DNA of 64,000 bases from Escherichia coli (GCA_025544715.1 GCA_025544715.1_4109.2); one strand, 5' to 3'. Positions 6,495 through 38,520 are shown, numbered from the stretch's first letter. Made by a program: numbers and translations. Notes: generated from the sequence alone by a model not told the origin.

Positions 6495-6558
6495 TGGATA
6501 TTCCTTAATGGTTAATCATCCATCTCTTCGAGATGTCTGTTCGCTTCTAATACTACGT

Positions 6559-7145: not shown

Positions 7146-8111
7146 TTAGAAATCTTCGTATTCGTACCCTTTTGCAAGTACTAGCTTCTTAAGCTTTTGC
7201 ATAGCTTCACTGTACTTTCGATGTATTGATGAACGGGATTTAACATATTTTCCATTATCATCAACAAAACCATTATCAGCAATCTCACGAAGCGTTTCAG
7301 GTTCATATTCACCTAGACCATGAACACGCTGGATAATCTCACGTTCTTTAGTACTCAATTCGTTAGTCAGTTCATTGATAGCATAACGTAAAGGTGCACG
7401 AATACTATCAACATTGAGGTTAAAATCAGAAGCAGGTGAATGAATAATGTCACCTAGTGTACCATCTGTAACACCGTCTAATGGTGCATCCAGTGAAGTG
7501 TATTCGCTTTGAAATAACAAACAATTATTAACATGCTGAATCTCAATCCCAGTACCCTCTGAGATTATTTCAGGAGTTGGGCGAACACCATGTTTACGCA
7601 TATATTCTTGGCAGAATCTTTTTACTTTGATCTTATGAACACTCATATAACGTGGGAAGTGTACCATATAGTTAGCGTCAGAACTTTCGTTATAAACTGT
7701 CATGTAAATACTAGAAGAAGCATAGGTAATGAACTTCACATTCTTATTAAGATCAAAGGTTTTTAGTGCTCTCATGAACCCCTCAACACCATATGAAATC
7801 TTATCTTCAAATGGGATATAACAAGTACATTTACTTGCTACATCAATAATAAGTCCATAATTGTAACGAACTAACAGTTCAGTGTTTTTCTTTACATTGA
7901 TACCAGCTTGAATATCACGAATTAGATCTTCATTGGTAACATTTTGTGGTCGCTTAAGTGTAATATTATATTTGAAACTGCTTTGTACTTTACCTTCATT
8001 TTCATCTTTATCTTCAACGAAATCTAAGGCTTCTAGTGTGTTGACTTCTTCATTAGCAAAACATTCATCCAGAACTTCTTCGGCAATTGTATTTAAATCA
8101 AGCTTTTTCAC
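7146..8111 (-). CDS. RNA polymerase sigma factor, sigma-70 family (321 aa)
   Basis: region 2-like GFMRALKTFDLNKNVKFITYASSSI and region 4-like LSTKEREIIQRVHGLGEYEPETLREIAD. Confidence 0.6.
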   Translation of the reverse strand: MKKLDLNTIAEEVLDECFANEEVNTLEALDFVEDKDENEGKVQSSFKYNITLKRPQNVTNEDLIRDIQAGINVKKNTELLVRYNYGLIIDVASKCTCYIPFEDKISYGVEGFMRALKTFDLNKNVKFITYASSSIYMTVYNESSDANYMVHFPRYMSVHKIKVKRFCQEYMRKHGVRPTPEIISEGTGIEIQHVNNCLLFQSEYTSLDAPLDGVTDGTLGDIIHSPASDFNLNVDSIRAPLRYAINELTNELSTKEREIIQRVHGLGEYEPETLREIADNGFVDDNGKYVKSRSSIHRKYSEAMQKLKKLVLAKGYEYEDF

Positions 8112-10128: not shown

Positions 10129-10547
10129 TTGTTTAGCTCCGTTAATTTTCGTTTAACTTCTAGATCATGAAATTCATCGGCATATGAGTTTTGAACAGTT
10201 CTGATGTATTCCAACATAACAAACATAGTTCCACATACCCATAGATATGTATAGTAATCAAATACAAATGCATATAACATACACGGTACTAAAATGAAAG
10301 TGTAAACAAAACTATATCGTGTAGTTCCAAATACTTTCAGATATAACAAACGTCGATAATCACGGGCAAATGTATTGATGCACACTGAAAATGTAATTAA
10401 TGTATACCATGAAATACCCTGAATTAAACCTGAAACATTTACAAGTTTATGTTCATCGGAAAACCCCAGTGCATTTAGCACTGGAGCCATAACCCAACCA
10501 ATAATACTAATAAGAAAAAGATATTTTGCATTACTTAGTGTGAACAT
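10125..10547 (-). CDS. hypothetical membrane protein (140 aa)
   Basis: multiple hydrophobic helices; 4-nt overlap with downstream gene. Confidence 0.45.
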   Translation of the reverse strand: MFTLSNAKYLFLISIIGWVMAPVLNALGFSDEHKLVNVSGLIQGISWYTLITFSVCINTFARDYRRLLYLKVFGTTRYSFVYTFILVPCMLYAFVFDYYTYLWVCGTMFVMLEYIRTVQNSYADEFHDLEVKRKLTELNK

Positions 10548-10548
10548 A

Positions 10549-11007
10549 TTACTTTAGTCCCCATGCTTTTTTGATTGCATCAACAGAGTTTTGGTCCACT
10601 ACTTCCTTTTTTTCTGATGTAGTTTGAAGTTTATTAATTACATATTCCTTTGCATCTTTTTCTATCATAAATTTACCATCAACCAACACACCAAAAACTT
10701 TAGAATTTCGGGCTGGATATGGATTAATTTCATCAAGAGTACGGACTTTCTTATCAACTATAATGGCTTTGATGTAACCAGTTTCAAGTACTGTTGTAAT
10801 CACAGTCATTTCAATTGCAACTGGTGAATCCTCCCAATATGCAATCCATTTAGTAAAGCTACGATCAGGTGAATCCTTTGTGCATTTTAATTTAATTGCA
10901 CTATTAAAAATGTATTGTTTAAAATTGTCATCGACAACTTCACTAATACTCAAATAACCTTCACGATCTTCTGTGTTACGTTTGAAATTTGTAGCTAATA
11001 CATCCAT
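10549..11007 (-). CDS. hypothetical protein (152 aa)
   Basis: ORF track. Confidence 0.5.
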   Translation of the reverse strand: MDVLATNFKRNTEDREGYLSISEVVDDNFKQYIFNSAIKLKCTKDSPDRSFTKWIAYWEDSPVAIEMTVITTVLETGYIKAIIVDKKVRTLDEINPYPARNSKVFGVLVDGKFMIEKDAKEYVINKLQTTSEKKEVVDQNSVDAIKKAWGLK

Positions 11008-12907: not shown

Positions 12908-14062
12908 ATGTCAAGGTCAATTGCTGCGGCTGGACGCTATAAGTTTGGTGAATGTGGTTATGTTGTTGATGGTGCAATCCTCAACGATGGAACTAGACTA
13001 AAAAATATTAGAATCTATCGCCAAAGAAGCCATAGATTATATGATTTAGTTGATCCCAGAACTAATATAATATATCGTAAAGTACAAATAACAACTAAAG
13101 ATAATAAAGGTTATCTATTAAATTACAATAAAACTAATGACCAACTATTAAGTGAAATTAATAAAAATTGTTTCTTTGTTCGTGGATATTCCGAAGAGCC
13201 ACAAGAAACTGATACTGGATTTGTATATAAATTCATGCTACATAAAACAATTTTAGGTAGTTCACAAACCTTGTATCATATGTATACACCTGAATGTGGT
13301 ATTATAGATCGTGATATAGATAATATTCTCATTTCACCAGTATTTGTTGGTAATGACTCAATTAGTGGTAAATTATTCAATACTGGTTCAGAAATTGATA
13401 CTAATGGTATGGTAATAACAATCGTATTACCAGACGGAACAGAATACTTTACTACCCAATTTGTTAATGATGCATTTACAATTCCAGTTGATGTTATCAC
13501 ACAATCAGGGAAAGGTACTGCTACACTCACTTCTCCATATTATAACACTAAAGTGGTGGAATTTGATGTACTTGAAAGTGGAGAAGATATTGATTTTGTT
13601 ACATCAGTTCTTCTATCCCAATTTGAACCTGTTTCGGAAGGTGTATTTTCTGCGGTTGTTCCATTTGATGTTCATGATCGTGGACAGTACTTAGCACTTC
13701 AAGCATACAGTGGTGACTTATATCAAGTTGGTGTAGATCTTTCTGTAGACGCAGAAGGTAATATTACTGTTTATCAAACTGATAATTTACCTGTTTCTTT
13801 GAGTATAATCGGAAAAACACTGCATACTACTCCTTTCCATAAAGAATATACTTTAAGTGAGTGGGTTCTCGGTGAAGACTCTATGTACTCTATCTCAGTT
13901 CCTGTAACTGAACATGGTAAAGCACTACCACAAGTTCAATTATATTCTTCAGACAATCACGTAGTTCATAGCGAAATACAAGTTGATGAAGATGATAATG
14001 TGATTTTAAAAGTAGTAGAACCACTAGACTGTTCAGTCGTAATAGTTGGTTACAACGCATAA
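12908..14062 (+). CDS. hypothetical protein (384 aa); only clear plus-strand gene
   Basis: long ORF with strong RBS, own promoter and downstream terminator. Confidence 0.6.
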   Translation: MSRSIAAAGRYKFGECGYVVDGAILNDGTRLKNIRIYRQRSHRLYDLVDPRTNIIYRKVQITTKDNKGYLLNYNKTNDQLLSEINKNCFFVRGYSEEPQETDTGFVYKFMLHKTILGSSQTLYHMYTPECGIIDRDIDNILISPVFVGNDSISGKLFNTGSEIDTNGMVITIVLPDGTEYFTTQFVNDAFTIPVDVITQSGKGTATLTSPYYNTKVVEFDVLESGEDIDFVTSVLLSQFEPVSEGVFSAVVPFDVHDRGQYLALQAYSGDLYQVGVDLSVDAEGNITVYQTDNLPVSLSIIGKTLHTTPFHKEYTLSEWVLGEDSMYSISVPVTEHGKALPQVQLYSSDNHVVHSEIQVDEDDNVILKVVEPLDCSVVIVGYNA

Positions 14063-16194: not shown

Positions 16195-16641
16195 TTAGTT
16201 ATATGCTGTGAATAGATCAATGTTTTTATCATCTACACTGATTAATTTGCCAGTTGAACTAACAAACACAATATTTCCACCTGGCGTTAGTTGAACACGC
16301 TGGTTTACTGAATATTGCCCATTAAGGTTGTAATCAGCCCATTCGACTACATAACGTTGAATAACACCGTTAGTATCATAAAGATAAACGTGTGTCACGT
16401 CACGCATTTTCAAACGTTCCAACAATGTAGAGTTATCCATGAAATCAGATGGTGTATTGCTGCGTAAAGCAATACCAAACTCACCGATACCAGTACTAAT
16501 TGTCAGTCCGTTTGAAAAACGGCTACAAAGAGTCTTCTCATCAGCAATATGCATCCATAAAACATTCTTTACATCAATATCAACAAATTCACAGTTTTCA
16601 AAAACCAAACCTACTTTGGAAACTTTACCATTAAATTGCAT
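16195..16641 (-). CDS. hypothetical protein (148 aa)
   Basis: ORF track. Confidence 0.45.
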   Translation of the reverse strand: MQFNGKVSKVGLVFENCEFVDIDVKNVLWMHIADEKTLCSRFSNGLTISTGIGEFGIALRSNTPSDFMDNSTLLERLKMRDVTHVYLYDTNGVIQRYVVEWADYNLNGQYSVNQRVQLTPGGNIVFVSSTGKLISVDDKNIDLFTAYN

Positions 16642-17086
16642 TAGTAACTCCTATTTTTTTATATTTTAAAATTAAATCACTCACGGCTTTCATTAGATTA
16701 TATGGAATAGCTAACTCTTTAACAGTACTATCCATAAAATGTTCTTCTTCGGTATCATAAAATGTTGAACTATAGTGTTCACAATCATTTATACTATCAT
16801 AAAAAGAAGACGTAAGTTTATCGACAATGACAGTGATTTGTTTACCAGTTTTGGTATATCCTACCTGAACGGTTAATCCAATATCCTCAGCCTCTACACG
16901 AATTATAAACGAATTATTAGTATAGTTCAGCCAACAATCTTCACCAAAGTATACAACACTGTGTTTCTTCTGAAATGAAGTAGCGGTGTTAAGAACACCA
17001 ATAGCAACATCAACTGTTTTTTCATTTAAAATATTAGACATTTGTGTTCCTGCTTCGTATGTTTCGTGAAATCTCAAAAATACCAT
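16631..17086 (-). CDS. EE-x-FFQ-x-S motif paralogue family protein
   Basis: C-terminal DTEEEHFMDSTVKEL. Confidence 0.55.
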   Translation of the reverse strand: MVFLRFHETYEAGTQMSNILNEKTVDVAIGVLNTATSFQKKHSVVYFGEDCWLNYTNNSFIIRVEAEDIGLTVQVGYTKTGKQITVIVDKLTSSFYDSINDCEHYSSTFYDTEEEHFMDSTVKELAIPYNLMKAVSDLILKYKKIGVTNAI

Positions 17087-17462
17087 TCAACTGTTCAACA
17101 GTTAAACCCTGTAAATCATAAACAGTTGATAGTTGAAAGAAAAGTTCTGAATCTATAGTATCATGTTCAATTGGAAGATTCAAGAGGTCTTTGTTAATAA
17201 AATAATCATATGTTCGAATTGTCAAAGAATCACCAAAGATATCAATGTAAAATTTCGGAACATTATGTAACGAAACATCTATTAATATGTTTTCAGCCTC
17301 TCTACAAGAAATTTTAGAATTATTTTTATAAGATTGGAATGAAAAATTATAAGGTTCATCGACCGATGTGTATGATGAGGTATCACCTTCGGAAAATATT
17401 ACACCACATTCAATAAGATGTGTTAACGACTTAGGTGGAATTTTTAACATTTCACTTCCCAT
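17034..17462 (-). CDS. EE-x-FFQ-x-S motif paralogue family protein
   Basis: C-terminal DSELFFQLSTVYDL; start probably a downstream Met. Confidence 0.55.
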   Translation of the reverse strand: MGSEMLKIPPKSLTHLIECGVIFSEGDTSSYTSVDEPYNFSFQSYKNNSKISCREAENILIDVSLHNVPKFYIDIFGDSLTIRTYDYFINKDLLNLPIEHDTIDSELFFQLSTVYDLQGLTVEQLNGIFEISRNIRSRNTNV

Positions 17463-17880
17463 CCTTACTCATATTACTACGAATCACCCCACTAAGAAAA
17501 CATATTTTCCTTAATGTATCATAACTGATATTTGTAAGATCATGTACAAAATTCAACTGCAAGTACATTTCTTCAGTTAATTGATTAAATGTATCATCAA
17601 CACAAATGTTAGTATGTTCCGTTATGTCTATTTCTATATTATTTTCCCAAATATCAATGCTAACAGCATAGTCTGATGTATGCCTGGATTGAACTGAAAT
17701 AAAAATATTATTACTGTTGTATAATGTCTCGGTGTACCCATTCAAAAATGATCCAACGACAACATCAAAAATGCCATCTCTAATTGGGTTTTTTGTTTCA
17801 AACGTATCACTACAAACTTGACGGTATACAATGTCAACATACTTATCAATTAAAGTAAACAAATAACTCATTACATTCAC
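17452..17880 (-). CDS. EE-x-FFQ-x-S motif paralogue family protein (divergent)
   Basis: C-terminal LTEEMYLQLNFVHDL. Confidence 0.5.
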   Translation of the reverse strand: MNVMSYLFTLIDKYVDIVYRQVCSDTFETKNPIRDGIFDVVVGSFLNGYTETLYNSNNIFISVQSRHTSDYAVSIDIWENNIEIDITEHTNICVDDTFNQLTEEMYLQLNFVHDLTNISYDTLRKICFLSGVIRSNMSKDGK

Positions 17881-17887
17881 CTATATA

Positions 17888-17918
17888 AGAAAAAAGGCCG
17901 ATTCATTGAATCAGCCTT
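17888..17918 (-). terminator. hairpin plus U6; terminator overlapping promoter start region
   Basis: AAGGCTGATTCA / TGAATCGGCCTT inverted repeat followed by UUUUUU on minus strand. Confidence 0.4.
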
Positions 17919-17920
17919 AA

Positions 17921-17949
17921 GTATAACATGTAAGAAGTTAAAATGTCAA
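17921..17949 (-). promoter_or_regulatory. sigma70-like promoter (TTGACA-17-TTATAC)
   Basis: minus-strand reading. Confidence 0.4.
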
Positions 17950-18035
17950 CTTCTAAATTACAGCATCCAAGAGGAATAAAAAGATACTGTTAGAGGGTAA
18001 CGAATATAATGAATTTGAGGGTAATATCATTATAC

Positions 18036-18091
18036 GTAAAAAGTGATAGCTTCTATACATAAGGAGGAATCAGTACTGACTAGAAGCTATC
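18036..18091 (-). terminator. stem-loop (11-bp stem, 25-nt loop) plus ACUUUUUA
   Basis: GATAGCTTCTA ... TAGAAGCTATC inverted repeat just downstream of ORF 18105-18389. Confidence 0.4.
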
Positions 18092-18104
18092 GGGTTAAAC
18101 GATT

Positions 18105-18389
18105 TCAGTACTGAGTGTTTAGTTTAGGATGAGTATTTCCATCTTCGATTTGTTTTAGAATCGAGTCACGAATTTCTACTGCCCCTTGATAACTATATTT
18201 ATCTTTTGGGATCACCCATGTATATTCACCATCAGTGGTTTTAAAATCAATACATGGATTATCCCTGTATTCAGATGCAATGATTGAAATAACATGTAAT
18301 GAATTCAATGAATGATTTGTATAAGGATAATTGTTATTGTCTCTGAACGTGAATGTTTTTAGTTCATCAGGTGCAACAATGAATTCCAT
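18105..18389 (-). CDS. hypothetical protein (94 aa)
   Basis: ORF track. Confidence 0.4.
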   Translation of the reverse strand: MEFIVAPDELKTFTFRDNNNYPYTNHSLNSLHVISIIASEYRDNPCIDFKTTDGEYTWVIPKDKYSYQGAVEIRDSILKQIEDGNTHPKLNTQY

Positions 18390-18580
18390 TATTCATCCTC
18401 GTACTTCTTGAATGGTGGAACATCTACCTTGAAGTCTTTGCACATCTTAGTTGTACGAACTTCAGTATTGTTGTGATAATTTTTCTTAAATTCATAAGAA
18501 ACATAATTACGAATACCAGGTGTATGAATAATAGCAAGAACCAATGTACGACCAAACAAGCATAATAAATTCCAGAACAT
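18389..18580 (-). CDS. hypothetical protein (63 aa)
   Basis: ORF track. Confidence 0.3.
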   Translation of the reverse strand: MFWNLLCLFGRTLVLAIIHTPGIRNYVSYEFKKNYHNNTEVRTTKMCKDFKVDVPPFKKYEDE

Positions 18581-18589
18581 ATGAATCTC

Positions 18590-18955
18590 CTAATTGTGGG
18601 TTTTAACTAAACGTGAGACAGCTAGTATAGCATTAACCTCATCCAATGTCAACCCACCAATGTCATTAATCATTGAGTACTGAAATAGTGATTCTTCAGT
18701 GTAATGGTAATCATGAGAAGCAATAAAGATTGCTGGTTTAGATGCATCCAAAATTATCTTTGTCATTGTACTATATATATCAAATTGATACAATAGATTT
18801 TCACTTGTATATGCTATGTAGATATTATTTGAATAGGCTGGATGTACCATTGTAAAACCATCATAACATAATATTTTTATGTTCGGATCGTCAAAATTGC
18901 CTGTATAAAGGTTATTACAAACATCTTGCATTATACGTACTATTAGACTAGTCAT
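18590..18955 (-). CDS. EE-x-FFQ-x-S motif paralogue family protein
   Basis: C-terminal YTEESLFQYSMINDIGGLTLDEVNAIL. Confidence 0.55.
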   Translation of the reverse strand: MTSLIVRIMQDVCNNLYTGNFDDPNIKILCYDGFTMVHPAYSNNIYIAYTSENLLYQFDIYSTMTKIILDASKPAIFIASHDYHYTEESLFQYSMINDIGGLTLDEVNAILAVSRLVKTHN

Positions 18956-19379
18956 TTAATGGATTTAGTACCTCTTCTGGAATCAACTTTTGAACTTTAA
19001 GTATAGCTTTAATGTCATCAAATGTCAATCCACGTAGGTCGTTTAGGAGGCAGTACTGGAAGAATTTTTCTTCAGTATTTATATCGTCAATATTCATTTG
19101 GATTGATTCGTTATCATCATCATAATCATAATCTTCATTATCACAATAATAACTTCTGAATATAACTCGTTCAAAATACACATCAAATGAATAAAAATGA
19201 TTATCGATTTCATATCCAAGAAAAATATTAAAACATGTATTTAAATCTGTTGTTTCATTTAAATTTGTGTCAAAACAAAAAACTCGCACTTCACCAATAT
19301 CATCTATATATTCATCTTTGAGTGACCATGTGTTGTTTTTTAATACATAGTTCACAAGTTCAACGATGTTGTATTTCAT
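18948..19379 (-). CDS. EE-x-FFQ-x-S motif paralogue family protein
   Basis: C-terminal NTEEKFFQYCLLNDLRGLTFDDIKAIL. Confidence 0.55.
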   Translation of the reverse strand: MKYNIVELVNYVLKNNTWSLKDEYIDDIGEVRVFCFDTNLNETTDLNTCFNIFLGYEIDNHFYSFDVYFERVIFRSYYCDNEDYDYDDDNESIQMNIDDINTEEKFFQYCLLNDLRGLTFDDIKAILKVQKLIPEEVLNPLND

Positions 19380-21897: not shown

Positions 21898-22391
<494 letters not shown>

Positions 22392-22753
22392 ATCACCAAC
22401 TTTAATTAAAAAAATGGATGGTGACGCGTTTAAACGCCGCTGTTAATTCAGCTTTATAACCACCCGTTTTAACTTACCTTTCGGCTACCTTGACGTGGGG
22501 CGTACAGGCTACTAAAAGCAACTTCTGTAAACATATTTCCACGCCTTACCATTTTAAATAAAAGTCCATCCGGTTTTCCAGTTTGGTGAAGGACTGTCAC
22601 CTCTAGTTTCAACCTGCTAGTCAAGTAATAATTGCCTATCGTCCAATTATCAAACCCGTCTAGGTTAACATTCACCACTTCCTAGAGTACCAGAGATCTT
22701 GTTCTGGATAGCATCGACGTAACTTACACCATATACGTCTGATTGTGGAATTC
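22392..22753 (-). ncRNA. candidate promoter-driven structured RNA or long leader (~360 nt)
   Basis: ORF-free, visibly GC-richer stretch immediately downstream of a consensus promoter. Confidence 0.25.
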
Positions 22754-22778
22754 ATTATATCAGTACTGAACTATTTAG

Positions 22779-22782
<4 letters not shown>
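22754..22782 (-). promoter_or_regulatory. sigma70-consensus promoter (TTGACT-17-TATAAT), cassette copy 2
   Basis: near-identical to the cassette at 21995-22023. Confidence 0.55.
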
Positions 22783-23191
<409 letters not shown>

Positions 23192-23204: not shown

Positions 23205-23365
<161 letters not shown>

Positions 23366-23369
<4 letters not shown>

Positions 23370-23526
23370 ATTCGTACCAGTAGTTCAATTAAGTACATTT
23401 CATATGCTGGATCGTTGATAAGTTTATCATACAGATGTGGCTCTGAAATGAATTCCCAATGATACTCTAACCACTTACCAAAACCTGCATATCTAAAATT
23501 AATGTCATTCATCCATTCTTCATGTG

Positions 23527-23530
<4 letters not shown>
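23366..23530 (-). CDS. MTHEEW small-protein family member (54 aa)
   Basis: hand translation MTHEEWMNDINFRYAGFGKWLEYHWEFISEPHLYDKLINDPAYEMYLIELLVRI. Confidence 0.45.
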
Positions 23531-23790
<260 letters not shown>

Positions 23791-23794
23791 TATT

Positions 23795-23910
<116 letters not shown>

Positions 23911-23927
23911 ATGTGATGTCCCATTAT

Positions 23928-24146
23928 TTATGCAAGTGCTTTAGATACACCGACACCAATAATTCCAGTGATAGCGATATGGATATTGACAAGTTGATTA
24001 CTATCATATGGGTTTGTTTCTGTAATAACCAATGTTGTATCATTGACTAAAACCACAGTGCCTTTTACACGATACCCATGTAGTAGTACTTGAACCTCAT
24101 CTTCAGGTTTTAATGATTGAATAACTTCAAATAAAGTTGTTTCCAT
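23928..24146 (-). CDS. hypothetical protein (72 aa)
   Basis: ORF track. Confidence 0.35.
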   Translation of the reverse strand: METTLFEVIQSLKPEDEVQVLLHGYRVKGTVVLVNDTTLVITETNPYDSNQLVNIHIAITGIIGVGVSKALA

Positions 24147-24162
24147 TTTTTATATTCCTTGT

Positions 24163-24345
24163 TTAGTTTTGATTATTTGATTTTCTAAATGCCAGTTCGC
24201 ATATAAACCAAGGTTTTCTGGTATCCAAAACATATGACCTGAAAAGATTTTCATCTCTTAAGATATCATAATGTACCTGACGAATGCCATTTCCAAAGCA
24301 ATCATGTTCTTTATGCTGTTTGGACATCCATTCTTCGTGTGTCAT
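24163..24345 (-). CDS. MTHEEW small-protein family member (60 aa)
   Basis: track ORF 24163-24363 trimmed to the internal MTHEEWMSKQHKEHDCFGNGIR start. Confidence 0.4.
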   Translation of the reverse strand: MTHEEWMSKQHKEHDCFGNGIRQVHYDILRDENLFRSYVLDTRKPWFICELAFRKSNNQN

Positions 24346-24346
24346 T

Positions 24347-24682
<336 letters not shown>

Positions 24683-24687
24683 TCTTA

Positions 24688-24864
24688 CTATTTTTTGTCT
24701 CTAATTGCAAGCTCATAGATGAACCAGTGGTTGCTATCCCCATCCAATACAAATGATTTGAAAAGTTGTTTATCTTTTAACACATCATAATGACCTTGGC
24801 GTATACCAAAACCAAAAGGATTATGTTTGAATTTTAGTTCATCTAACCATTCTTCATGTGTCAT
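24688..24864 (-). CDS. MTHEEW small-protein family member (58 aa)
   Basis: hand translation MTHEEWLDELKFKHNPFGFGIRQGHYDVLKDKQLFKSFVLDGDSNHWFIYELAIRDKK. Confidence 0.4.
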   Translation of the reverse strand: MTHEEWLDELKFKHNPFGFGIRQGHYDVLKDKQLFKSFVLDGDSNHWFIYELAIRDKK

Positions 24865-30967: not shown

Positions 30968-31411
30968 TTACTCCTTAAAGTAGATATCACGAATTTGCTT
31001 AATCATCTCTAACTCTTGAAGTCCTATCATACCAAAGTTTTCTTGTACTGTCAACTGTTGGAAGTACATTTCCTCTAAATTATTATAAGGAATATCCACT
31101 AATGATAAAGGAACACTTTCACCACGGTATAGCAGATCTTCAACGAAAAGTTTTAAAATCATGATAGAAAATGAATCTTTTTGGATATGAAATTTGTAAA
31201 ATGTTTGGTTAGTACTGAACATTGTATTTGATGGATTGAAACCCATTTCAACAAATACTGTATCTTTATCATTATGTTTGAAATATGTACATCTTGAATT
31301 CGCAAGAACTTTAGATTTTGGGAAATAAAAATCACCCATCAACTTCTGTCGTTTCCAATCCTCGTATACAACTGGATGCTTAACCTTCTTCAATTGGTGC
31401 AGTACTGTCAT
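30968..31411 (-). CDS. EE-x-FFQ-x-S motif paralogue family protein
   Basis: C-terminal NNLEEMYFQQLTVQENFGMIGLQELEMI. Confidence 0.55.
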   Translation of the reverse strand: MTVLHQLKKVKHPVVYEDWKRQKLMGDFYFPKSKVLANSRCTYFKHNDKDTVFVEMGFNPSNTMFSTNQTFYKFHIQKDSFSIMILKLFVEDLLYRGESVPLSLVDIPYNNLEEMYFQQLTVQENFGMIGLQELEMIKQIRDIYFKE

Positions 31412-31791
31412 AGTTTTTTCCAGTCCAATGAATCGAAATCGATTTGCTCAGGATTATCAACAGCGACAACTCGTGCATTATGAAGAGTTTCAAAGTAGCC
31501 GTTCCACGGTGTTCGTAATGGAACTGTCACATCGCCAACTTTAACCAAGAATGAATATTCTGGTGATATTGGGTCAAACCACTCTTTTTGTTTAGCATTT
31601 TCAACGATAGTTTCGTGTTCTTTAGTATAGCAATTATCTTGCTTCATATAAAACACCCAATGCTCTTTTAGGCACTGTAAAGCAGCAACTGCTTCCTCTT
31701 TAGAAGACCATTGAATATCAATTGTATCAAGAACGTCATAACAATTTTCAGTGTCCCCTGTAGTGTAATGTACTTCAATGCTGTATTTCAT
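31408..31791 (-). CDS. hypothetical protein (127 aa)
   Basis: ORF track; lacks the family motif. Confidence 0.45.
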   Translation of the reverse strand: MKYSIEVHYTTGDTENCYDVLDTIDIQWSSKEEAVAALQCLKEHWVFYMKQDNCYTKEHETIVENAKQKEWFDPISPEYSFLVKVGDVTVPLRTPWNGYFETLHNARVVAVDNPEQIDFDSLDWKKL

Positions 31792-32246
31792 TAATCATCG
31801 CCTTTTAGTAATTTACAAATTTCAATCATATGATAATAACATGTATTCCAAAATTGTCCATTAGTACTTCCAACATCATGCACTGTACTTTGCTGGAACA
31901 CATATTCATCGTTGAACATCATTTTAATATCATCAATGTAAAATTCTGGTTTTGAATCATTATTGTATTCAATACTCGTTTCACCATCTGGATCAAGTGA
32001 AATTGATGATATGTCGTGAATTCCTCTCGGATTTGTTGGATAAATTCTCAACGTAAGAGGATAGAAGTCTGGATCGGTTTCATAAGTATATTCGATTATG
32101 TAATAACCATCACCAGTAATTGATTGATATTTAAATGTAGTTTCAATTGAATTTGAGATGTTAAATCCCAGTTTCTTTATCTCATGTAGATGTGATAATA
32201 TTTTATGTAAAGATCCTAAAACATGAATCAAATTATCAATTTTCAT
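31791..32246 (-). CDS. EE-x-FFQ-x-S motif paralogue family protein
   Basis: C-terminal FNDEYVFQQSTVHDVGS. Confidence 0.55.
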   Translation of the reverse strand: MKIDNLIHVLGSLHKILSHLHEIKKLGFNISNSIETTFKYQSITGDGYYIIEYTYETDPDFYPLTLRIYPTNPRGIHDISSISLDPDGETSIEYNNDSKPEFYIDDIKMMFNDEYVFQQSTVHDVGSTNGQFWNTCYYHMIEICKLLKGDD

Positions 32247-32785
32247 TTACGATCCTTTGAAAAGTTCAGTTTAAAAGTTTTACCAAATTCCATTGTAGCT
32301 TTACCCAGATTGTTAATATTTTCTTTCAACATTTCTTGCATCTTCCTAATACTTTCAATCCAGGTTTCTTCTTCGATACGAAGAATTGGTCGCAATCGTT
32401 CCTGAATATCGTTAAAACGTGTATTGAGTTCAACCAATGATTCATATGTGAAATCTTTCATATCGATAATAGTACTTCTTTGAAAGAATTCTTCTTCAGA
32501 CAAATTACTTAAAATGATTTTATCACGACCAATAGATAATGTCAATTCATCATCTTTATTTTTTTTAATTACAATACTAACAGGTGTTTTTAATGTAATG
32601 CAAATATCATGATTATTAAATGTTTCAGTTTGGTTTGACATTCTGAATTGAAGTTTCCCAGATAAAGCATGTACTGGTGATGGTTGCTTTTTACCAGTAA
32701 TAACATCTTCCCATGAATCGAGAATATTATTAATAATTTTAACATAAGGAATTGGCATATATGCACCTATGAAAAATCCACGCAA
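32243..32785 (-). CDS. EE-x-FFQ-x-S motif paralogue family protein (180 aa)
   Basis: LSEEEFFQRSTIIDMKDF with extended C-terminal tail. Confidence 0.55.
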   Translation of the reverse strand: MRGFFIGAYMPIPYVKIINNILDSWEDVITGKKQPSPVHALSGKLQFRMSNQTETFNNHDICITLKTPVSIVIKKNKDDELTLSIGRDKIILSNLSEEEFFQRSTIIDMKDFTYESLVELNTRFNDIQERLRPILRIEEETWIESIRKMQEMLKENINNLGKATMEFGKTFKLNFSKDRK

Positions 32786-32800
32786 TGCGTGGATTTGTAA

Positions 32801-33331
32801 TTATTCAAGTATAGTAATTTCAATTAAACGAATTTCGATAAACTCGTTTTCAGTTTCCCATGACGTGCCAAATTTCTTTTCAAGTTCAGATTTCACATCA
32901 CTTTTAAATTTTCCCATAGTATTAGGAATAATTTGTTTGGTTAATTTGTCGTAACCACAATAAAACATAGGTTTCTCCCTTCGAGATATTAGCTGAACAA
33001 AATCTTTTGGATATGCAGGTATGTTATGCATCACTTCATGAATACACTCAGTACTTGAATCTTGTACTTTGTAGATTACATTAAGTTTACCTCTGAAATT
33101 TGCGGTCATATCAACAATAGTTCCTTTACCCGATTTAAGTAAAGTTCCATTCTTTGAATGAGAGCAATAAAATACCTCATCACCAATATTAGGATAATAC
33201 AAATTAAATTCTAATTCAGATTTTACAGCCAGCCGTTTGAAACTTTCTGTACGTTTTATATAAGTTTGGTATTTGTTTATGTTCAAAAGAATATCTCTCT
33301 TAGTAAATGTGATATAACTGGCATAGTCCAT
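32801..33331 (-). CDS. hypothetical protein (176 aa)
   Basis: ORF track. Confidence 0.45.
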   Translation of the reverse strand: MDYASYITFTKRDILLNINKYQTYIKRTESFKRLAVKSELEFNLYYPNIGDEVFYCSHSKNGTLLKSGKGTIVDMTANFRGKLNVIYKVQDSSTECIHEVMHNIPAYPKDFVQLISRREKPMFYCGYDKLTKQIIPNTMGKFKSDVKSELEKKFGTSWETENEFIEIRLIEITILE

Positions 33332-34143
33332 CCATTCCCAAGCATTTTGTATGCTTGTGTCTTACTAGACACTTTAAAGAAATCTTCAGGAACACCCTGT
33401 AATTTACAACATTCTACTACACTTAAGTGTCTATAGTCAATATTTCTTTTGCCATTCTCTAATAGATATTGACGATTAATCACTGGATCACGAAACACCA
33501 ATTGTCGTCTGGATTTATTAAAGTACTGGTTACAATCACCACCTTTAAAATAGTTAGCATCTATACAGTACGAAGCGGTTCTGTCAGTGTACCAACCATC
33601 TTCAATAATATCTTGAAGTTTAGGTGCATTGGATAATGCAGGTGGTATAAAAAGCTTATCAGTACTGTACCAGTAATATCTCTGCCTGAAGTGAGGCGTA
33701 TAATGCTGGGAGTTTATCAGTACTGGCGTGATTCCTAAAATACTATTAATGTATTCTTTGAAATCTTCCTTCATTTTGACATTTTCAAACAGAAATTTCA
33801 AGTTAGGATTGAGACTTTTGATATGATCAAAAATTTCAACCATTACTAAAAATAACTGCCCACGTATATCATTTAAACCACCCTGTTTACCTGCAACTGA
33901 CCAGGCTTGGCATGGGAAACCACCCATTAATAAATCTATTTTGTCCCACTCAATATCCCATTCTCTCCACTTAGTTACATCACCCAATTGGATAATATCA
34001 GGAAAGTTAGATTGAGATTCAGCTATTGCGTACTTATCAATTTCGGATGAATAATATTTTTCAACTGGGATACCAGCATCTTGCAATGCCATATATCCCA
34101 CACTCATTCCATTAAAAAGAGAAAGTACTCGGATAGGTTTCAT
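33283..34143 (-). CDS. DNA (cytosine-5)-methyltransferase (286 aa)
   Basis: C5-MTase motifs: LSLFNGMSVG (motif I-like), GGFPCQAWS (PCQ), ENV, HFRQRYYW, MLGNGWTMPV (motif X-like). Confidence 0.75.
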   Translation of the reverse strand: MKPIRVLSLFNGMSVGYMALQDAGIPVEKYYSSEIDKYAIAESQSNFPDIIQLGDVTKWREWDIEWDKIDLLMGGFPCQAWSVAGKQGGLNDIRGQLFLVMVEIFDHIKSLNPNLKFLFENVKMKEDFKEYINSILGITPVLINSQHYTPHFRQRYYWYSTDKLFIPPALSNAPKLQDIIEDGWYTDRTASYCIDANYFKGGDCNQYFNKSRRQLVFRDPVINRQYLLENGKRNIDYRHLSVVECCKLQGVPEDFFKVSSKTQAYKMLGNGWTMPVISHLLREIFF

Positions 34144-34195
34144 ATAAAATCCTTTTTATATTGTTAAGGTACTATAATATATTATAGCATCTTAT

Positions 34196-34486
34196 TTAGA
34201 AATCTTCCAAACTTTTTTCATCACACCATCGTGATGTACAGATGATTGCAGATGCCAGAATTGAAGAACTTGCACGTCCTCCACCGAGTAAGTACTGGCT
34301 AATTACGCCAATCATATTGAACACTTTATCATACTCGGTTAGTTGTTCAAAACCTTTCTTCCAATGCTGATATTCTTCTTCTGTGATATTAAACTCACCA
34401 TCAAGTTCCTTTAAAATCTTTTTAAGCACAGCACTATGTTCACTCATCATCATCTCCATATCGTTCGTCATAAAAATCATCATCAC
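34196..34486 (-). CDS. hypothetical protein (96 aa)
   Basis: ORF track. Confidence 0.4.
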   Translation of the reverse strand: MMMIFMTNDMEMMMSEHSAVLKKILKELDGEFNITEEEYQHWKKGFEQLTEYDKVFNMIGVISQYLLGGGRASSSILASAIICTSRWCDEKSLEDF

Positions 34487-34525
34487 GATCTAATGGTTCT
34501 TTTGGCTTTTCAGACATATATTTCC

Positions 34526-34786
34526 TCACATGGTAAATGTATTATCACCATCCATATCTTCATCAGTTGCTTCAGCTAATGTCTTGATTGTAAGTAATCC
34601 ACGCTTCACGTACAACATGAAGACCTTTTCATAATTACCAAACATAATCTCAGGTGACATGTAATTCTCTGTTACAATGACGATTGGACGGCCCTGTGAA
34701 AGCATACGAAACATAGTACGATATTTGTCAAATGTGCGAAATTCATCCATGTTCATCATGTGGCGTTTACGAACTACTTTAGTCAT
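34526..34786 (-). CDS. hypothetical protein (86 aa)
   Basis: ORF track. Confidence 0.4.
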   Translation of the reverse strand: MTKVVRKRHMMNMDEFRTFDKYRTMFRMLSQGRPIVIVTENYMSPEIMFGNYEKVFMLYVKRGLLTIKTLAEATDEDMDGDNTFTM

Positions 34787-34800
34787 CTTATTACCTTTAG

Positions 34801-35241
34801 TTAATTGAACTCTACTTCTGGATAATGATTATAGAACATCTCACGAACTGCGTCAAGATGTTCTTTAAATTTCTCAATGTCATCGAGTGTTAATATAGTG
34901 TCACATATAGTACTTAACTGAAAGAGTGATTCTTCAGTACTGTTTAACTCCAAATCAAATGTAGATGACGATTCATCTGAGATAATATTACCACATATTT
35001 CAAATGTGTCAATATGAACATCATTCAGTTTATTACCAATATAATCATTATATATGAACACAAAAATGTATGATGATTTTTTAGTATAGGTTTTAACATC
35101 ATATGTTATGTAACATTTAAAGTCAAATGTATCATATTCCAATGATACAATTCCAACATCACGATATTCGTTTGTTTCACTTGTTAAATCCGGTATAGAT
35201 GTAATACCTAATAAATCAAAAAACTTTATTGGATTTAGCAT
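34801..35241 (-). CDS. EE-x-FFQ-x-S motif paralogue family protein
   Basis: C-terminal STEESLFQLSTICDTILTLDDIEKF. Confidence 0.55.
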   Translation of the reverse strand: MLNPIKFFDLLGITSIPDLTSETNEYRDVGIVSLEYDTFDFKCYITYDVKTYTKKSSYIFVFIYNDYIGNKLNDVHIDTFEICGNIISDESSSTFDLELNSTEESLFQLSTICDTILTLDDIEKFKEHLDAVREMFYNHYPEVEFN

Positions 35242-35687
35242 TTGATTACCTTTGGATTTTGTTCGATTATGTCAAATAATGACAAAACCATTTCATTTAT
35301 TTTTTCAAAACTTAAGACTATATAACTTAAATCTTTATAATCATAATTAAAATTTTGAATAAGTGATTCCTGGAAATATCCTTCTTCTGTTATGCATGTA
35401 CTTGCATTATATATAGTTGTACAAGTCACATCAGTATAAGTTGAAATAATTTCAATAATGTCAGATATAGTATTGTATATTAACATAACTGTTGTTGTTC
35501 TGATAAGTGGGTTGTAAAAGGATAACTCAGTACGGTCATAGGTCTTTTCAATATGAACTATACATGAATGTGAATAAGAACTACTAATATGTATATACTC
35601 TTTAGGTGATACTACACTTTTGGTATCGAAATTACAAGATAATGCAATTTCAAAATGTTTTTTTATTTCGTCAACATTCATCCTCAC
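35235..35687 (-). CDS. EE-x-FFQ-x-S motif paralogue family protein
   Basis: C-terminal ITEEGYFQESLIQNF. Confidence 0.55.
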   Translation of the reverse strand: MRMNVDEIKKHFEIALSCNFDTKSVVSPKEYIHISSSYSHSCIVHIEKTYDRTELSFYNPLIRTTTVMLIYNTISDIIEIISTYTDVTCTTIYNASTCITEEGYFQESLIQNFNYDYKDLSYIVLSFEKINEMVLSLFDIIEQNPKVIKC

Positions 35688-36055
35688 TCACCATTAATTT
35701 TTATATTTGTATAGTCTAATGCTTTTTTAACAATATCGATTTCTGTAATTCCTATTACATTTTTCTCAATCACTGACAATTGGAATAGTTCCTCTTCGGA
35801 AATATCAATACTGTGGATTCTTGTACAATAATCGTTGAAGTCATATACATATCGTATTGTATAGTCGTTTATAGAAACTGATACAATTGCAATCCCATCA
35901 TGGATATAAGTTAGTTCATTTGAGTATCTATTAAAAATTAACCTATCTGGTGAACCTAATGGTAGTTGAAATGTATTTCTAGTATCTTGAACAATAACAA
36001 AATCATCATCTATATTTTTACTCAGAACACCCAAAATATCATATATAGTAGTCAT
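35684..36055 (-). CDS. EE-x-FFQ-x-S motif paralogue family protein
   Basis: C-terminal ISEEELFQLSVIEKNVIGITEIDIV. Confidence 0.55.
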   Translation of the reverse strand: MTTIYDILGVLSKNIDDDFVIVQDTRNTFQLPLGSPDRLIFNRYSNELTYIHDGIAIVSVSINDYTIRYVYDFNDYCTRIHSIDISEEELFQLSVIEKNVIGITEIDIVKKALDYTNIKINGE

Positions 36056-36056
36056 G

Positions 36057-36461
36057 TTATTCTTTACCTTCAGCAGTTCTGATAATTTTCATAACTTCTC
36101 TGGATAGTGCATATACTTTTTTATAGTGCTCATACGTTACTGAACCAACATTATTAATAGTACTTTCCATGAAGAAAGTTTCTTCTGTATACAGTTCATT
36201 TGACAATGCAACCAGTTCTTGGTGAAATTTTGAGTCCTTCCAATAACGAAATTCAAAAACAAATTGTCCGTCATGTCCGACTCTACAACATTCAGAACGA
36301 TCACTGTCTACACAGCTAATAACAATATCACTTTCTGAATCATACCAGATATTTCCCATATTTGTTTCAATAACAGCATAATCAATTTTTGTAGAATTGG
36401 GAATTAAACCTTTTTTCACCAGCACTAAACTGGTATTGTCAATATCTAGTAAACTTACCAT
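36057..36461 (-). CDS. EE-x-FFQ-x-S motif paralogue family protein
   Basis: C-terminal YTEETFFMESTINNVGSVTYEHY. Confidence 0.55.
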   Translation of the reverse strand: MVSLLDIDNTSLVLVKKGLIPNSTKIDYAVIETNMGNIWYDSESDIVISCVDSDRSECCRVGHDGQFVFEFRYWKDSKFHQELVALSNELYTEETFFMESTINNVGSVTYEHYKKVYALSREVMKIIRTAEGKE

Positions 36462-36462
36462 A

Positions 36463-36873
36463 TCAATTCCTCATTACTAAAGTGTTTTTAATCTCTAACA
36501 ATTTACTATAAATCTTCTTGAATTGTAATATATCTTCAAAAGTAATACCACCAAGATCATCAACTAATGAACGTTGGAATAAAGATTCACTTGTTTGTAA
36601 TGTATCTAAATCGGTGATTTTTAATAAAGAACTTGGATTAAGTGTTTCGACTAGTAGTATGTTTTTGTATGGTACATATGTAATCTTGATGTTCTTTTTA
36701 TAATTAATCTTATAAAATCGCATAATTGACGATTCATCACTTAGTTGGATAATTGGGTCGTCTTGTTCATTAGACCACCATACAGTACTAGTCATATGAT
36801 TGACGTGGTGGTTCAATTCTGATATGTTCAAATCTAAAAAATATTTTATTTCATTGTGTAAATCTAAACTCAT
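36463..36873 (-). CDS. EE-x-FFQ-x-S motif paralogue family protein
   Basis: C-terminal QTSESLFQRSLVDDLGGITFEDILQF. Confidence 0.55.
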   Translation of the reverse strand: MSLDLHNEIKYFLDLNISELNHHVNHMTSTVWWSNEQDDPIIQLSDESSIMRFYKINYKKNIKITYVPYKNILLVETLNPSSLLKITDLDTLQTSESLFQRSLVDDLGGITFEDILQFKKIYSKLLEIKNTLVMRN

Positions 36874-36928
36874 AAATTTATCCTCAATGCAGCATCATCA
36901 TGTATTGTAGGATAAACCCACAATAATG

Positions 36929-37393
36929 TCAAGATGTAAAATAATTATACCAGTAATATAGTTCTTTTAATTCTTCAGTACTGAATAATACTTCTTCTAT
37001 TGTAGATTGTTGAAAGTGATATTCATCATTAAGATACATAGAAATATTACTATATACTTTCCTATTGTATTGACATAAAAAAGAAGTTTTTTTATTAATG
37101 TATTCAGTAAATGTTAATTTATCTAACTCAATATCGAAAGATAATCTAATAATATTAATATTATCATTTACATACATTAGTTTCTTTGAAAAATGATCAA
37201 TTGTAATATATTCTTTGTGAGAGAACTGAAATATATTATTAAATTTTTTACCATTTGTGCTTCTAAATTTTTCAAGGTAATAAGAAAGTGGTTTAATTAT
37301 TGAAGTTCCAATATTATTTTTCATATATACTCGAATTTTAGATAATAAAAATGCCCCGAAGATCGGGGCAGTACTAAAATGATTTTGTACCAA
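36929..37393 (-). CDS. EE-x-FFQ-x-S motif paralogue family protein
   Basis: C-terminal LNDEYHFQQSTIEEVLFSTEELKEL. Confidence 0.55.
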   Translation of the reverse strand: MVQNHFSTAPIFGAFLLSKIRVYMKNNIGTSIIKPLSYYLEKFRSTNGKKFNNIFQFSHKEYITIDHFSKKLMYVNDNINIIRLSFDIELDKLTFTEYINKKTSFLCQYNRKVYSNISMYLNDEYHFQQSTIEEVLFSTEELKELYYWYNYFTS

Positions 37394-37486
37394 AAGGGGA
37401 ATAAGAACAAAATGAAAATATAATAACGCATCATTATTATGTAAAGGGAGGAAAGTAACATGATATGTTAACCATTTCTGGTATAT

Positions 37487-38038
37487 TTATTTATCATTTA
37501 ATTCTTTAAGTTGGGTTTGTATATCTTTAGTTATATTGCGAATTTTCTTAAAGCAATAAACACTATCATCCAATTCGATTTTAAGTTCATGTGTAAATGC
37601 ATACAGAAGTTCAGCAAATACTAAATCTTGTCGCATCCAGTTTCCATCTTTATATAAAGTCATTACACAATATGGGCATTCACTATTAGAAGTTTGCTTT
37701 CCAATAAAAACACTTTGAATTGATTCATGCTTAAAGCCAATAAAACTTTCATTTATTTTTTTAATTTCAGTACTGATATCGAATTTAGCACTGGTGTTGA
37801 TTGCAAAAATTTTATTCCCACTTTCATCAGTATTGATATTGAGTTCAATATCACTACCTAGTTTACGTACTGCTAGAGTATAAAGAAGTAATTCATACAT
37901 GTCGTAACTTGTTACATTACCATTTGGTGCAATTACATCAACACTAACACCGTGCATTTTTACTTCTGTATTAAATCCATCTTTATCAGAAAGAAAATCA
38001 GTGATTTGCTTTGTAAGGATTTTAATTTGGTCTATCAT
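37487..38038 (-). CDS. hypothetical protein (183 aa)
   Basis: ORF track. Confidence 0.45.
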   Translation of the reverse strand: MIDQIKILTKQITDFLSDKDGFNTEVKMHGVSVDVIAPNGNVTSYDMYELLLYTLAVRKLGSDIELNINTDESGNKIFAINTSAKFDISTEIKKINESFIGFKHESIQSVFIGKQTSNSECPYCVMTLYKDGNWMRQDLVFAELLYAFTHELKIELDDSVYCFKKIRNITKDIQTQLKELNDK

Positions 38039-38091
38039 ATTTCATTTCCTTATGTGATAAAAGCCTCCATTATGGAGGCTTTTGTATTTAC

Positions 38092-38520
38092 TTAGAGAGA
38101 TTCTTCGTATTCAGCAACAATCCCAACCATTTCATTAATGAACTTGATGTGAGAATGTGTCACTGTACGGAAGTCGTAAACAAGTGACTGTTGGAAAAAT
38201 ACATCTTCATCAAGAGAACCATCAAAGTTCAAATCAATGTTTTCATCGTCATTGCTTGGTGCAACTTTAATATTCAGAAGATTTTCATCAACTGCAAGTT
38301 TTACAACACAACCCAGTGCAATGGCAAGAACATATGCTGGTTTCTTAGCTTTTTCATTACGGAATGGTGCACGTAGAGCACAAAAAGTACTGCTAATCTC
38401 ATCATTTGGTTCTTTGTATTTAACATTGACCATTAGTTCTTCGATTTTGACGCTCTCAATAACACGACCAGTTTCTGGAGCGAAGAAAGAATGTTCACGG
38501 ATAGTTTGTTCGATATTCAT
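38092..38520 (-). CDS. EE-x-FFQ-x-S motif paralogue family protein
   Basis: C-terminal SLDEDVFFQQSLVYDFRTVTHSHIKFI. Confidence 0.55.
   Translation of the reverse strand: MNIEQTIREHSFFAPETGRVIESVKIEELMVNVKYKEPNDEISSTFCALRAPFRNEKAKKPAYVLAIALGCVVKLAVDENLLNIKVAPSNDDENIDLNFDGSLDEDVFFQQSLVYDFRTVTHSHIKFINEMVGIVAEYEESL

Follow-up and report, generated by a model that had tools for sequence, protein, structure and literature searches.

The window analysed here is a 64,000-nucleotide (nt) stretch of DNA from an Escherichia coli assembly (GCA_025544715.1), and its positions 30968-38520 carry a tandem array of ten small paralogous phage genes set around a C5-cytosine DNA methyltransferase. Profile searches identify the array as one segment of a clade-specific expansion of ∼59 copies in a RaK2-like jumbo phage. 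The chances appear evenly balanced that the family consists of early, non-structural, non-enzymatic binders deployed in host takeover or counter-defence and co-transcribed with a protective methylase. Matches to 30968-38520 come from 46 phage records, all jumbo myoviruses of Escherichia, Salmonella and Klebsiella, the closest being Escherichia phage vB_EcoM_G17 (hereafter G17; 96.7% identity, 95% query coverage). These matches place the source of the window as an Asteriusvirus jumbo coliphage of the 121Q/PBECO4/G17 group, with a genome of ∼350 kb. In public databases these sequences already stand as hypothetical proteins, and general mention has been made of paralogy in RaK2-like phages; no paper was found in which the family is defined or its motif, fold or size given.

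Ten paralogues in one array

Ten open reading frames (ORFs) in 30968-38520 are each recovered by a hidden Markov model (HMM) built without the ORF in question (leave-one-out, against 242 window ORFs; E 5e-12 to 1.4e-4), and the HMM from the ten array ORFs also drew in further window ORFs. All-against-all BLASTP provides links for only two of the ten, so that profile methods are needed to see the family. Every gene of the region lies on the minus strand, all ten member reading frames are intact, and the members are packed end to end and co-directional, with overlapping or abutting start and stop codons. By increasing coordinate the array reads: one member, a non-member, two members, a terminator, a 176-residue ORF, the methylase, two small ORFs, six members, a terminator, a 183-residue ORF, a terminator and a final member. 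The genes are as follows (aa, amino acids; E, leave-one-out value unless stated otherwise).

30968-31411, minus strand: family member, 147 aa, weakest motif (FQQLT); E 1.4e-4
31408-31791, minus strand: non-member, acidic ORF of 127 aa, phrog_10176; hhalign probability 0.14
31791-32246, minus strand: family member, 151 aa; E 7e-6
32243-32785, minus strand: family member, 171 aa (ATG 32758) or 180 aa (TTG 32785), C-terminal tail longer than in other members; E 1.5e-6, phrog_38573 aligned from residue 10
32801-33331, minus strand: non-member, basic ORF of 176 aa, overlapping the methylase 3' end by 49 nt; hhalign probability 0.1
33283-34143, minus strand: orphan C5-cytosine DNA methyltransferase, 286 aa; PF00145, E 4.6e-38
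34196-34486, minus strand: non-member, ORF of 83-96 aa, phrog_27090; never among the family-profile hits
34526-34786, minus strand: non-member, ORF of 86 aa, phrog_4868, 98-100% conserved among relatives; never among the family-profile hits
34801-35241, minus strand: family member, 146 aa, modelled with AlphaFold, in the same swapped allele block as the next gene; E 9.5e-9
35235-35687, minus strand: family member, 150 aa, GTG start overlapping the upstream stop (GTGA), in the swapped allele block; E 1.5e-5
35684-36055, minus strand: family member, 123 aa; E 1.3e-4
36057-36461, minus strand: family member, 134 aa, motif with FM for FQ; E 5.3e-12
36463-36873, minus strand: family member, 136 aa; E 7.5e-8
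36929-37324, minus strand: family member, 131 aa from ATG 37324, motif LNDEYHFQQSTIEE; E 1.9e-5 (as 36929-37393)
37487-38038, minus strand: non-member, ORF of 183 aa, phrog_15745 by PHROG match; hhalign probability 0.1 against the family profile
38092-38520, minus strand: family member, 142 aa, motif LDEDVFFQQSLVYD; E 1.1e-6, and 5.3e-17 with the A2 profile

Two mechanical ORF starts in the array are artefacts. One is that of 36929-37393, a TTG-start ORF that contains a terminator hairpin; the start at ATG 37324 is taken from the G17, phAPEC6 and UE-S1 annotations.

An initial annotation of the window had described this region as eleven paralogues flanking a methyltransferase. The family, its coordinates, the uniform minus strand and the methyltransferase inside the array are borne out by the leave-one-out HMM and the PF00145 match, but the number of members is ten, as is the sum of the three, six and one that the annotation itself listed. 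Its gene order is right in giving six consecutive members and then one more after the 183-aa ORF; it skips four ORFs, namely the 127-aa ORF between the first and second members, the 176-aa ORF between the third member and the methylase, and the two small ORFs that separate the methylase from the run of six. As candidates for an eleventh member, 31408-31791, 32801-33331 and 37487-38038 were rejected, each reaching an hhalign probability of ∼0.1 against a 140-sequence family profile. The second of these ends in 'TENEF', a C-terminal look-alike of the family motif, yet stays at 0.1. Its annotated length differs between relatives (168 nt in phAPEC6, 402 nt in UE-S1, 447 nt in WPEC5), so this ORF may be decaying or frameshifted in some of them.

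A clade-specific expansion

Within the window the family totals 19 members, the nine outside the array lying at 2011, 16631-19379, 22020-23132 and 25437. For a genome-wide count, the complete genome of the close relative ECO103 4-12-1 (351,992 bp) was reassembled: 59 ORFs match the family profile at E ≤ 0.01 (36 at E < 1e-5), all on a single strand and in three blocks of 20, 4 and 35. These ∼59 copies make up about a tenth of the ∼550 genes, in agreement with a published statement that paralogues account for 'nearly 10%' of RaK2 proteins (PMC3622015). The initial annotation called the array the densest run; this holds only for the uninterrupted run of six within the window, as members are packed more closely per kb at 16631-19379 and, in a related genome, 35 of them form a block elsewhere. 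In OR844650.1, the 352-kb relative, the two further blocks outside the window lie at 247-295 kb (35 members, mostly 100-230 aa, with weaker profile scores) and 198-213 kb (4 members, adjoining genes for a CCA-adding enzyme, a lysozyme and ribosome-associated inhibitor A); of the 40 hits that fall outside the window block, 26 have the (S/T)EExxFQxS motif.

When 1.84 billion cluster representatives were searched exhaustively with HMMER, 129 clusters (50% identity) came up at E ≤ 1e-3, nearly all of 105-170 aa and nearly all motif-bearing. With tblastn, relatives appear only in 340-380-kb Enterobacterales myoviruses: Asteriusvirus, RaK2/K64-1, GAP32, CBB, Munch/7t3/SE_PL, fENko-Kae01 and EJP2. 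By these searches the family is confined to RaK2-like jumbo phages. A metagenomic contig carries 10 members in 9 kb, and in the metagenomic relative the array stands upstream of a sigma factor gene. Word-indexed protein searches were uninformative on distribution, giving 29 close relatives with a 19-sequence profile and 24 with the 140-sequence profile.

Existing resources describe the family only in fragments. All copies are annotated merely as hypothetical proteins, neither Pfam nor NCBIfam has a model that covers them, and in PHROGs they are scattered among at least 25 families, none with a known function. No match was obtained in a PADLOC scan of six of the ten members or in a Protein Data Bank (PDB) sequence search with the family profile, and no paper delineating the family, its motif, fold or size was found in the literature.

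An invariant helix pair and a variable sheet

All ten members carry a TEE-x-[YF]-F-Q-x-S-[TL]-[VI]-type motif ∼30-45 residues before the C-terminus, or 79 residues before it in the long-tailed product of 32243-32785 (by eye). The shared C-terminal signature, (S/T)EExxFQxS(T/L)(V/I)xD, forms part of a conserved pattern T102, E103, E104, x, Y/F, F107, Q108, x, S110, T/L, V/I, x, D114 ... E120. Conservation is centred on residues 97-139, with E103, E104, F107, Q108 and S110 each present in >85% of 140 sequences, and the sheet region conserves core hydrophobic residues only. The conserved serine is encoded by AGT in eight copies and by TCA or TCT in seven, and the Phe and Gln codons are also mixed, so the motif is kept by selection on the protein and not on the DNA. 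These synonymous and disjoint codons rule out a DNA-level repeat or recombination signal behind the motif. Pairwise identity among the ten paralogues is only 17-31% (median 24%), implying that the duplications are old.

The members are single-domain proteins of 12-23 kDa and mostly acidic, with a median isoelectric point of 4.8. An AlphaFold model of 34801-35241, computed from the 140-sequence alignment, reaches a mean predicted local distance difference test (pLDDT) score of 83.3 and a predicted template modelling score (pTM) of 0.76; with 19 sequences only, pLDDT was 62, too weak for use. The predicted elements are a helix at residues 4-13, six antiparallel strands (31-96) and two C-terminal helices (103-112 and 119-139). 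The top Foldseek match is 1p32_B (E 0.034, probability 0.77), weak in that the template modelling (TM) score is only ∼0.3. This sole global fold match points weakly to p32/MAM33, as a lead and not as family membership.

The p32/gC1qR/C1QBP/MAM33 proteins (PDB 1p32, 3rpx, 7te3, 3qv0, 3jv1, 1yqf) are acidic, trimeric multi-ligand binders. The modelled phage protein may resemble them in the order of its elements (first an N-terminal helix, then a long, twisted sheet of antiparallel strands, and last two C-terminal helices packed on one face), and it is like them in small size and acidity and, putatively, in its non-enzymatic character. It differs in having six modelled strands where p32 has seven and in lacking any sequence signal, and p32 proteins are eukaryotic and mitochondrial: the resemblance is one of fold, not of membership. 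No PF02330 match was found in the 140 family members at E ≤ 0.01, and no p32 chain was retrieved from the PDB with the family profile at E ≤ 1. A BFVD fold search returned only poor models of the same family, from GAP32 and RaK2.

Two other interpretations of the motif were rejected. A TEV/3C-type (tobacco etch virus/3C) cleavage site, E-x-x-Y/F-F-Q-x-S, is incompatible with a segment that is confidently helical and has a variable P1' position, and we know of no TEV/3C-type protease in these phages. A Nudix-like 'EE' box or other enzyme motif is without Pfam support. No member matches an enzyme family in Pfam or NCBIfam, and the acidic character together with the fold points to a non-enzymatic binding module.

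Stable gene content and exchanged alleles

The initial annotation suggested comparison with the hypervariable regions of related phages. The array does not behave as such a region: the same ten members occur in the same order in G17, PBECO4, UE-S1 and WPEC5, and the variation is allelic. Salmonella phage SD-15_S21 retains nine members, the first (the orthologue of 30968-31411) being broken. The ratio of nonsynonymous to synonymous substitution rates (dN/dS, omega) is 0.1-0.45 where substitutions suffice, indicating purifying selection that is somewhat looser than in the neighbours, and the same ten genes are kept in lineages separated by dS >0.5. Between genera the family orthologue tested is ∼26% identical, against 63% for the adjacent methylase (RaK2).

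Nearly all array genes are 95-100% identical to those of G17 and PBECO4. Two genes depart from this: 34801-35241, with 68% identity to G17 and 96% to UE-S1, and 35235-35687, with 51% identity to G17/PBECO4 (dS 1.25-1.30) and 99% to UE-S1; across 34801-35687, dS against G17 and PBECO4 is 1.25-1.45, compared with ∼0.03 in the flanks. A second block, 30968-31791, is ∼75% identical to PBECO4 and UE-S1 and 95-99% to G17. Both swapped blocks have sharp mosaic boundaries (dS 0.6-1.4 inside, ∼0.03 in the flanks). In-situ positive selection or hypermutation of the two divergent genes was rejected, as dS (1.25-1.45) is inflated to the same degree as dN and both alleles share 96-99% identity with UE-S1; the inflated dS and the identity to UE-S1 together indicate recombinational allele exchange. 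By this mosaic pattern the window phage is a recombinant between lineages.

A separate length change affects the G17 orthologue of 38092-38520 (10135-10716 of the G17 segment), which measures 582 nt instead of 429 nt owing to an internal tandem duplication of ∼160 nt; window positions 38130-38291 match the G17 copy twice.

Host-type promoters and a likely transcription unit

Sigma-70 sites matching at least 11 of 12 consensus positions number 31 on the minus strand of the window and 2 on the plus strand, compared with 2.3 ± 1.4 in shuffled sequences. Ten of the 31 coding-strand sites are perfect (TTGACA-N16-18-TATAAT), and most lie 30-50 nt upstream of a start codon. Such strand-biased promoters fit early transcription by the host RNA polymerase. 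In the related phage PA5oct the host RNA polymerase is needed, and TTGAC/TATAATA promoters serve early small-gene blocks (PMC7318152). A literature search found no Asteriusvirus transcriptome. The control signals of the array are:

38057-38085, minus strand: predicted intrinsic terminator hairpin between 38092-38520 and 37487-38038; annotated by ARNold in G17
37352-37370, minus strand: predicted intrinsic terminator, TGCCCCGATCTTCGGGGCA followed by a T-run, inside the TTG-start ORF 36929-37393
36904-36932, minus strand: sigma-70-type promoter by consensus match, TTGACA-17-TACAAT, 31 nt upstream of the start at 36873
34828-34856, minus strand: promoter-like consensus match, TTGACG-17-TATAAT, inside the 3' end of 34801-35241 and 42 nt upstream of the start at 34786
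32774-32796, minus strand: predicted intrinsic terminator closing the methylase unit; annotated in G17 and UE-S1, stem kept in four relatives

All three terminators (38085-38057, 37370-37352, 32796-32774) are independently annotated in G17 and UE-S1. Compared across four related phages, the promoter at 36904-36932 has an invariant −35 element and keeps its −10 element as TACAAT or TAAAAT, and the spacer and flanks vary. The site at 34828-34856 lies in coding sequence, where conservation is uninformative. It is likely from this arrangement that one transcription unit starts at the promoter at 36932, runs through five members, the promoter-like site at 34856, the two small ORFs, the methylase and the 176-aa ORF, and ends at the terminator at 32774.

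An orphan methylase in a phage under restriction pressure

The product of 33283-34143 scores 131.9 bits against PF00145 (cut-off 22; E 4.6e-38) and matches phrog_116 at 5e-60. Its motifs, read from the translation and all aligning with DNMT3C, are SLFNGMSVG (I), GGFPC78QAW (IV, with the nucleophilic Cys78), FENV (VI), RHLSVVECCKLQGVPEDF and LGNGWTMPV (X); as translated, the methylase is intact and all C5 catalytic motifs are present. The target-recognition region is short. The closest PDB sequences are the catalytic domains of DNMT3A/B/C, aligned end to end (E 3e-23), followed by M.HaeIII and M.HhaI (7e-18). The enzyme thus resembles the DNMT3 clade with a short target-recognition domain, and it differs from DNMT3 in lacking the regulatory domains.

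A partner nuclease was sought nearby: none of the three adjoining ORFs (32801-33331, 34196-34486 and 34526-34786) gives a significant Pfam match, and the one scanned with PADLOC, 32801-33331, gives no match there either. The one sub-threshold Pfam match of 32801-33331 is Cadherin_5 (E 0.041). With no adjacent nuclease gene the methylase is an orphan and not part of a type II restriction-modification system; it shares this absence and the complete catalytic motifs with orphan phage anti-restriction methylases.

In the distant genus Alcyoneusvirus, too, the methylase is found within an array of the family: the RaK2 orthologue, gp194, is 63% identical and is flanked by eight members. RaK2 DNA is described as resistant to restriction and as carrying methylated CpG by bisulfite analysis, with data not shown there (PMC3622015). 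CpG methylation in RaK2 agrees with the DNMT3-like alignment, and by analogy the window enzyme is probably CpG-specific and protects the phage DNA from restriction. In UE-S1 the methylase coding sequence (5313-7193 of the UE-S1 segment) encodes 626 aa and contains an intein at residue 77/78, the catalytic Cys of PCQ, composed of a Hint domain and a LAGLIDADG homing endonuclease. TH47, where the match is ∼1 kb longer, probably has the same insertion. Some relatives thus carry an intein at the catalytic cysteine, and the window copy does not.

Avoidance of restriction sites is extreme. GCGC is missing altogether from the window (18.9 expected) and from OR844650.1 (160 expected), as well as from the RaK2 and metagenomic loci. 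Among palindromic hexamers with an expectation of at least 5, 16 of 57 are absent from the genome (CTGCAG 0/53, CCATGG 0/36, GGTACC 0/32, GGATCC 0/32 and others), whereas of 3,928 non-palindromic ones only 13 are absent, and these 13 for the most part form pairs (GGTCTC/GAGACC, CTCCTC/GAGGAG and the like). The CpG palindromes AACGTT, ATCGAT, TTCGAA, TACGTA, CACGTG, ACGT and CGCG (AT-flanked) are not avoided. The restriction pressure implied by such avoidance is real.

The E. coli type IV enzymes McrBC, McrA and Mrr act on CpG-methylated DNA, and T4 Arn blocks McrBC. A coliphage with 5-methylcytosine at CpG (5mCpG) would therefore need an Arn-like inhibitor, and one of the small acidic proteins co-transcribed with the methylase could, by analogy, fill that role. 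The members resemble T7 Ocr, ArdA and T4 Arn in being small and acidic, in their putatively early expression and in belonging to a phage under restriction pressure. The likeness is one of analogy only: there is no sequence or fold match, and the conserved acidic residues are few and form no DNA-mimicking array. No match to known anti-restriction or anti-defence families (ArdA, Ocr, KlcA, anti-CRISPR) was found in Pfam or NCBIfam.

What the family might do

The initial annotation read the array as an anti-restriction or host-takeover island. Part of this stands, in that the products appear to be non-virion, the promoters are of the early type, the orphan methylase is intact and restriction sites are avoided. 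Links between the family and restriction or defence are missing in Pfam, NCBIfam, PADLOC and the PDB, and the gene content is stable. The word 'island' is itself misleading, since the array is one piece of a genome-wide expansion.

In the favoured reading, unmodified host RNA polymerase would read the array genes at the start of infection, and the member proteins would act as non-enzymatic binders. The invariant C-terminal helix pair (T-E-E-x-Y/F-F-Q-x-S-T/L-V/I-x-D ... E) may serve as a scaffold for folding and perhaps also as a surface, common to all members, for oligomerisation or docking, with the hypervariable sheet directing each paralogue to a different host or defence-protein target. 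The methylase, co-transcribed from the promoter at 36932, and perhaps from 34856, to the terminator at 32774, would modify replicating phage DNA against restriction, and its methylation would complement the genome-wide avoidance of sites. A bolder version, which we regard as doubtful, makes the ∼59-copy family a combinatorial inhibitor library with a common helix-pair surface and a variable sheet; the methylase and its flanking paralogues would then be a co-evolved unit in which 5mCpG counters classical restriction and the small acidic proteins counter McrBC, McrA and Mrr.

Several observations weigh against this picture of early takeover or counter-defence binders. The gene content of the array is stable and omega is <1, whereas counter-defence islands usually vary between close relatives, and the family has no similarity to any known anti-restriction or anti-defence protein. 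Early timing is argued from promoter consensus and the PA5oct analogy. What the strongly conserved polar residues (E, E, Q, S, D, E) mark could also be a site of catalysis or ligand binding instead of a scaffold. The fold likeness to p32 is weak (TM ∼0.3, with no PF02330 signal in sequence), and the model covers one paralogue, 34801-35241.

Virion proteomes bear on the possibility that the family comprises virion or injected internal proteins, a role that the initial annotation had named as contrary to its own reading. The 62 virion proteins listed for phAPEC6 do not include the orthologues from the region, gp118c-gp134c, nor gp039c and gp289c-291c; two small virion proteins on that list that were candidates for membership, gp037c and gp306c, reach only E 0.75 and 0.45 against the family profile and are not members. 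None of the RaK2 family ORFs is annotated as a virion or structural protein, so no checked member is among the virion proteins of either phage, and the sigma-70 promoters point to early expression. A virion role is largely refuted on these grounds and retains very little probability, even though the long gene block that contains the family also includes RaK2 ORF182, a non-family neighbour with a virion-structural annotation, and gel-based mass spectrometry can under-sample small acidic proteins.

The family might instead serve the phage's own programme, as adaptors, regulators or chaperones for replication, for transcription with the phage's own sigma factor or for fibre assembly. Gene order and content conserved across the genus and partly across genera, purifying selection, the placing of the arrays between replication genes and the tRNA cluster with the sigma-factor gene, and the position of the metagenomic relative's array, also upstream of a sigma factor gene, would all suit such a role. 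We nevertheless consider it unlikely: ∼59 highly diverged copies far exceed known phage housekeeping needs, one member is broken in the viable Salmonella phage SD-15_S21, the arrays do not adjoin structural or fibre genes, and family orthologues diverge faster between genera (∼26% identity) than the methylase (63%). Bacterial poly-immunity loci have as their hallmark tandem arrays in which small single-domain paralogues have diverged around a conserved core; this likeness, together with the exchange of alleles between phage lineages by recombination, recommends a role in competition among phages and mobile elements, either as immunity-like proteins against toxins or nucleases of co-infecting phages, satellites or prophages, or in superinfection exclusion. 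Pfam scans and fold-search lists give no similarity to SUKH, Imm or other immunity families, no toxin genes are seen nearby and the gene content is stable, which leaves competition improbable. It is less probable still that most copies are redundant or near-neutral duplicates tolerated by a roomy capsid, without individual roles. The broken orthologue in SD-15_S21, the internal duplication in the G17 orthologue of 38092-38520 and the annotation of copies only as hypothetical proteins would be expected of such duplicates; what speaks against them is that the duplications are ancient (17-31% identity) and yet all ten frames are intact, with omega at 0.1-0.45, a motif kept by protein-level selection and the same ten genes retained in lineages with dS >0.5.

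As a lineage-specific expansion of small early phage genes beside an orphan phage methylase, the array is a known kind of thing. Bacillus phage G has a ∼35-copy zinc-ribbon family (PMC7824862), and the terminal repeat of PA5oct holds an early-transcribed block of 105 small genes (PMC7318152). Like the small early-gene expansions of phage G, RaK2 and PA5oct, the present family combines many co-directional small ORFans, strong host-type promoters, non-structural products and restriction to a clade; it differs from them in being larger, at ∼59 copies, and in having a gene content that is stable between relatives.

A single family accounts for about a tenth of the genes across a clade of 340-380-kb enterobacterial phages, several of which are under study for therapy, and its motif, fold model, distribution and transcriptional setting turn many 'hypothetical proteins' into a tractable set. 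If the members are inhibitors of host or defence proteins, they would be a large untapped source of tools and would help to explain the gene richness of jumbo phages; as an inhibitor library, the family would correspond, among phages, to the multigene families found in large eukaryotic DNA viruses. The methylase in turn raises the question of how a CpG-methylating coliphage escapes type IV restriction.

Genomic setting

Along the direction of transcription the window runs from topoisomerase II subunits, a clamp-loader subunit and TelA through the long block of small ORFs to six tRNA genes and a phage sigma factor. On one side of the family arrays are replication genes (topoisomerase II, clamp loader), on the other the tRNA cluster with the sigma-factor gene. 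At 23205-24864 a second, unrelated mini-family of five ORFs (54-66 aa) is interleaved with tRNA-Arg, tRNA-Ser and tRNA-Gly; four of its five ORFs start with MTHEEW, and in the fifth this sequence begins at residue 7. The sole long plus-strand ORF of the window, at 12908-14062, encodes 384 aa and is without a Pfam match. The G+C content of the window (∼33%) falls to its minimum of 27.8% at 36001-38000, where the 183-aa ORF and the upstream end of the run of six members are located.

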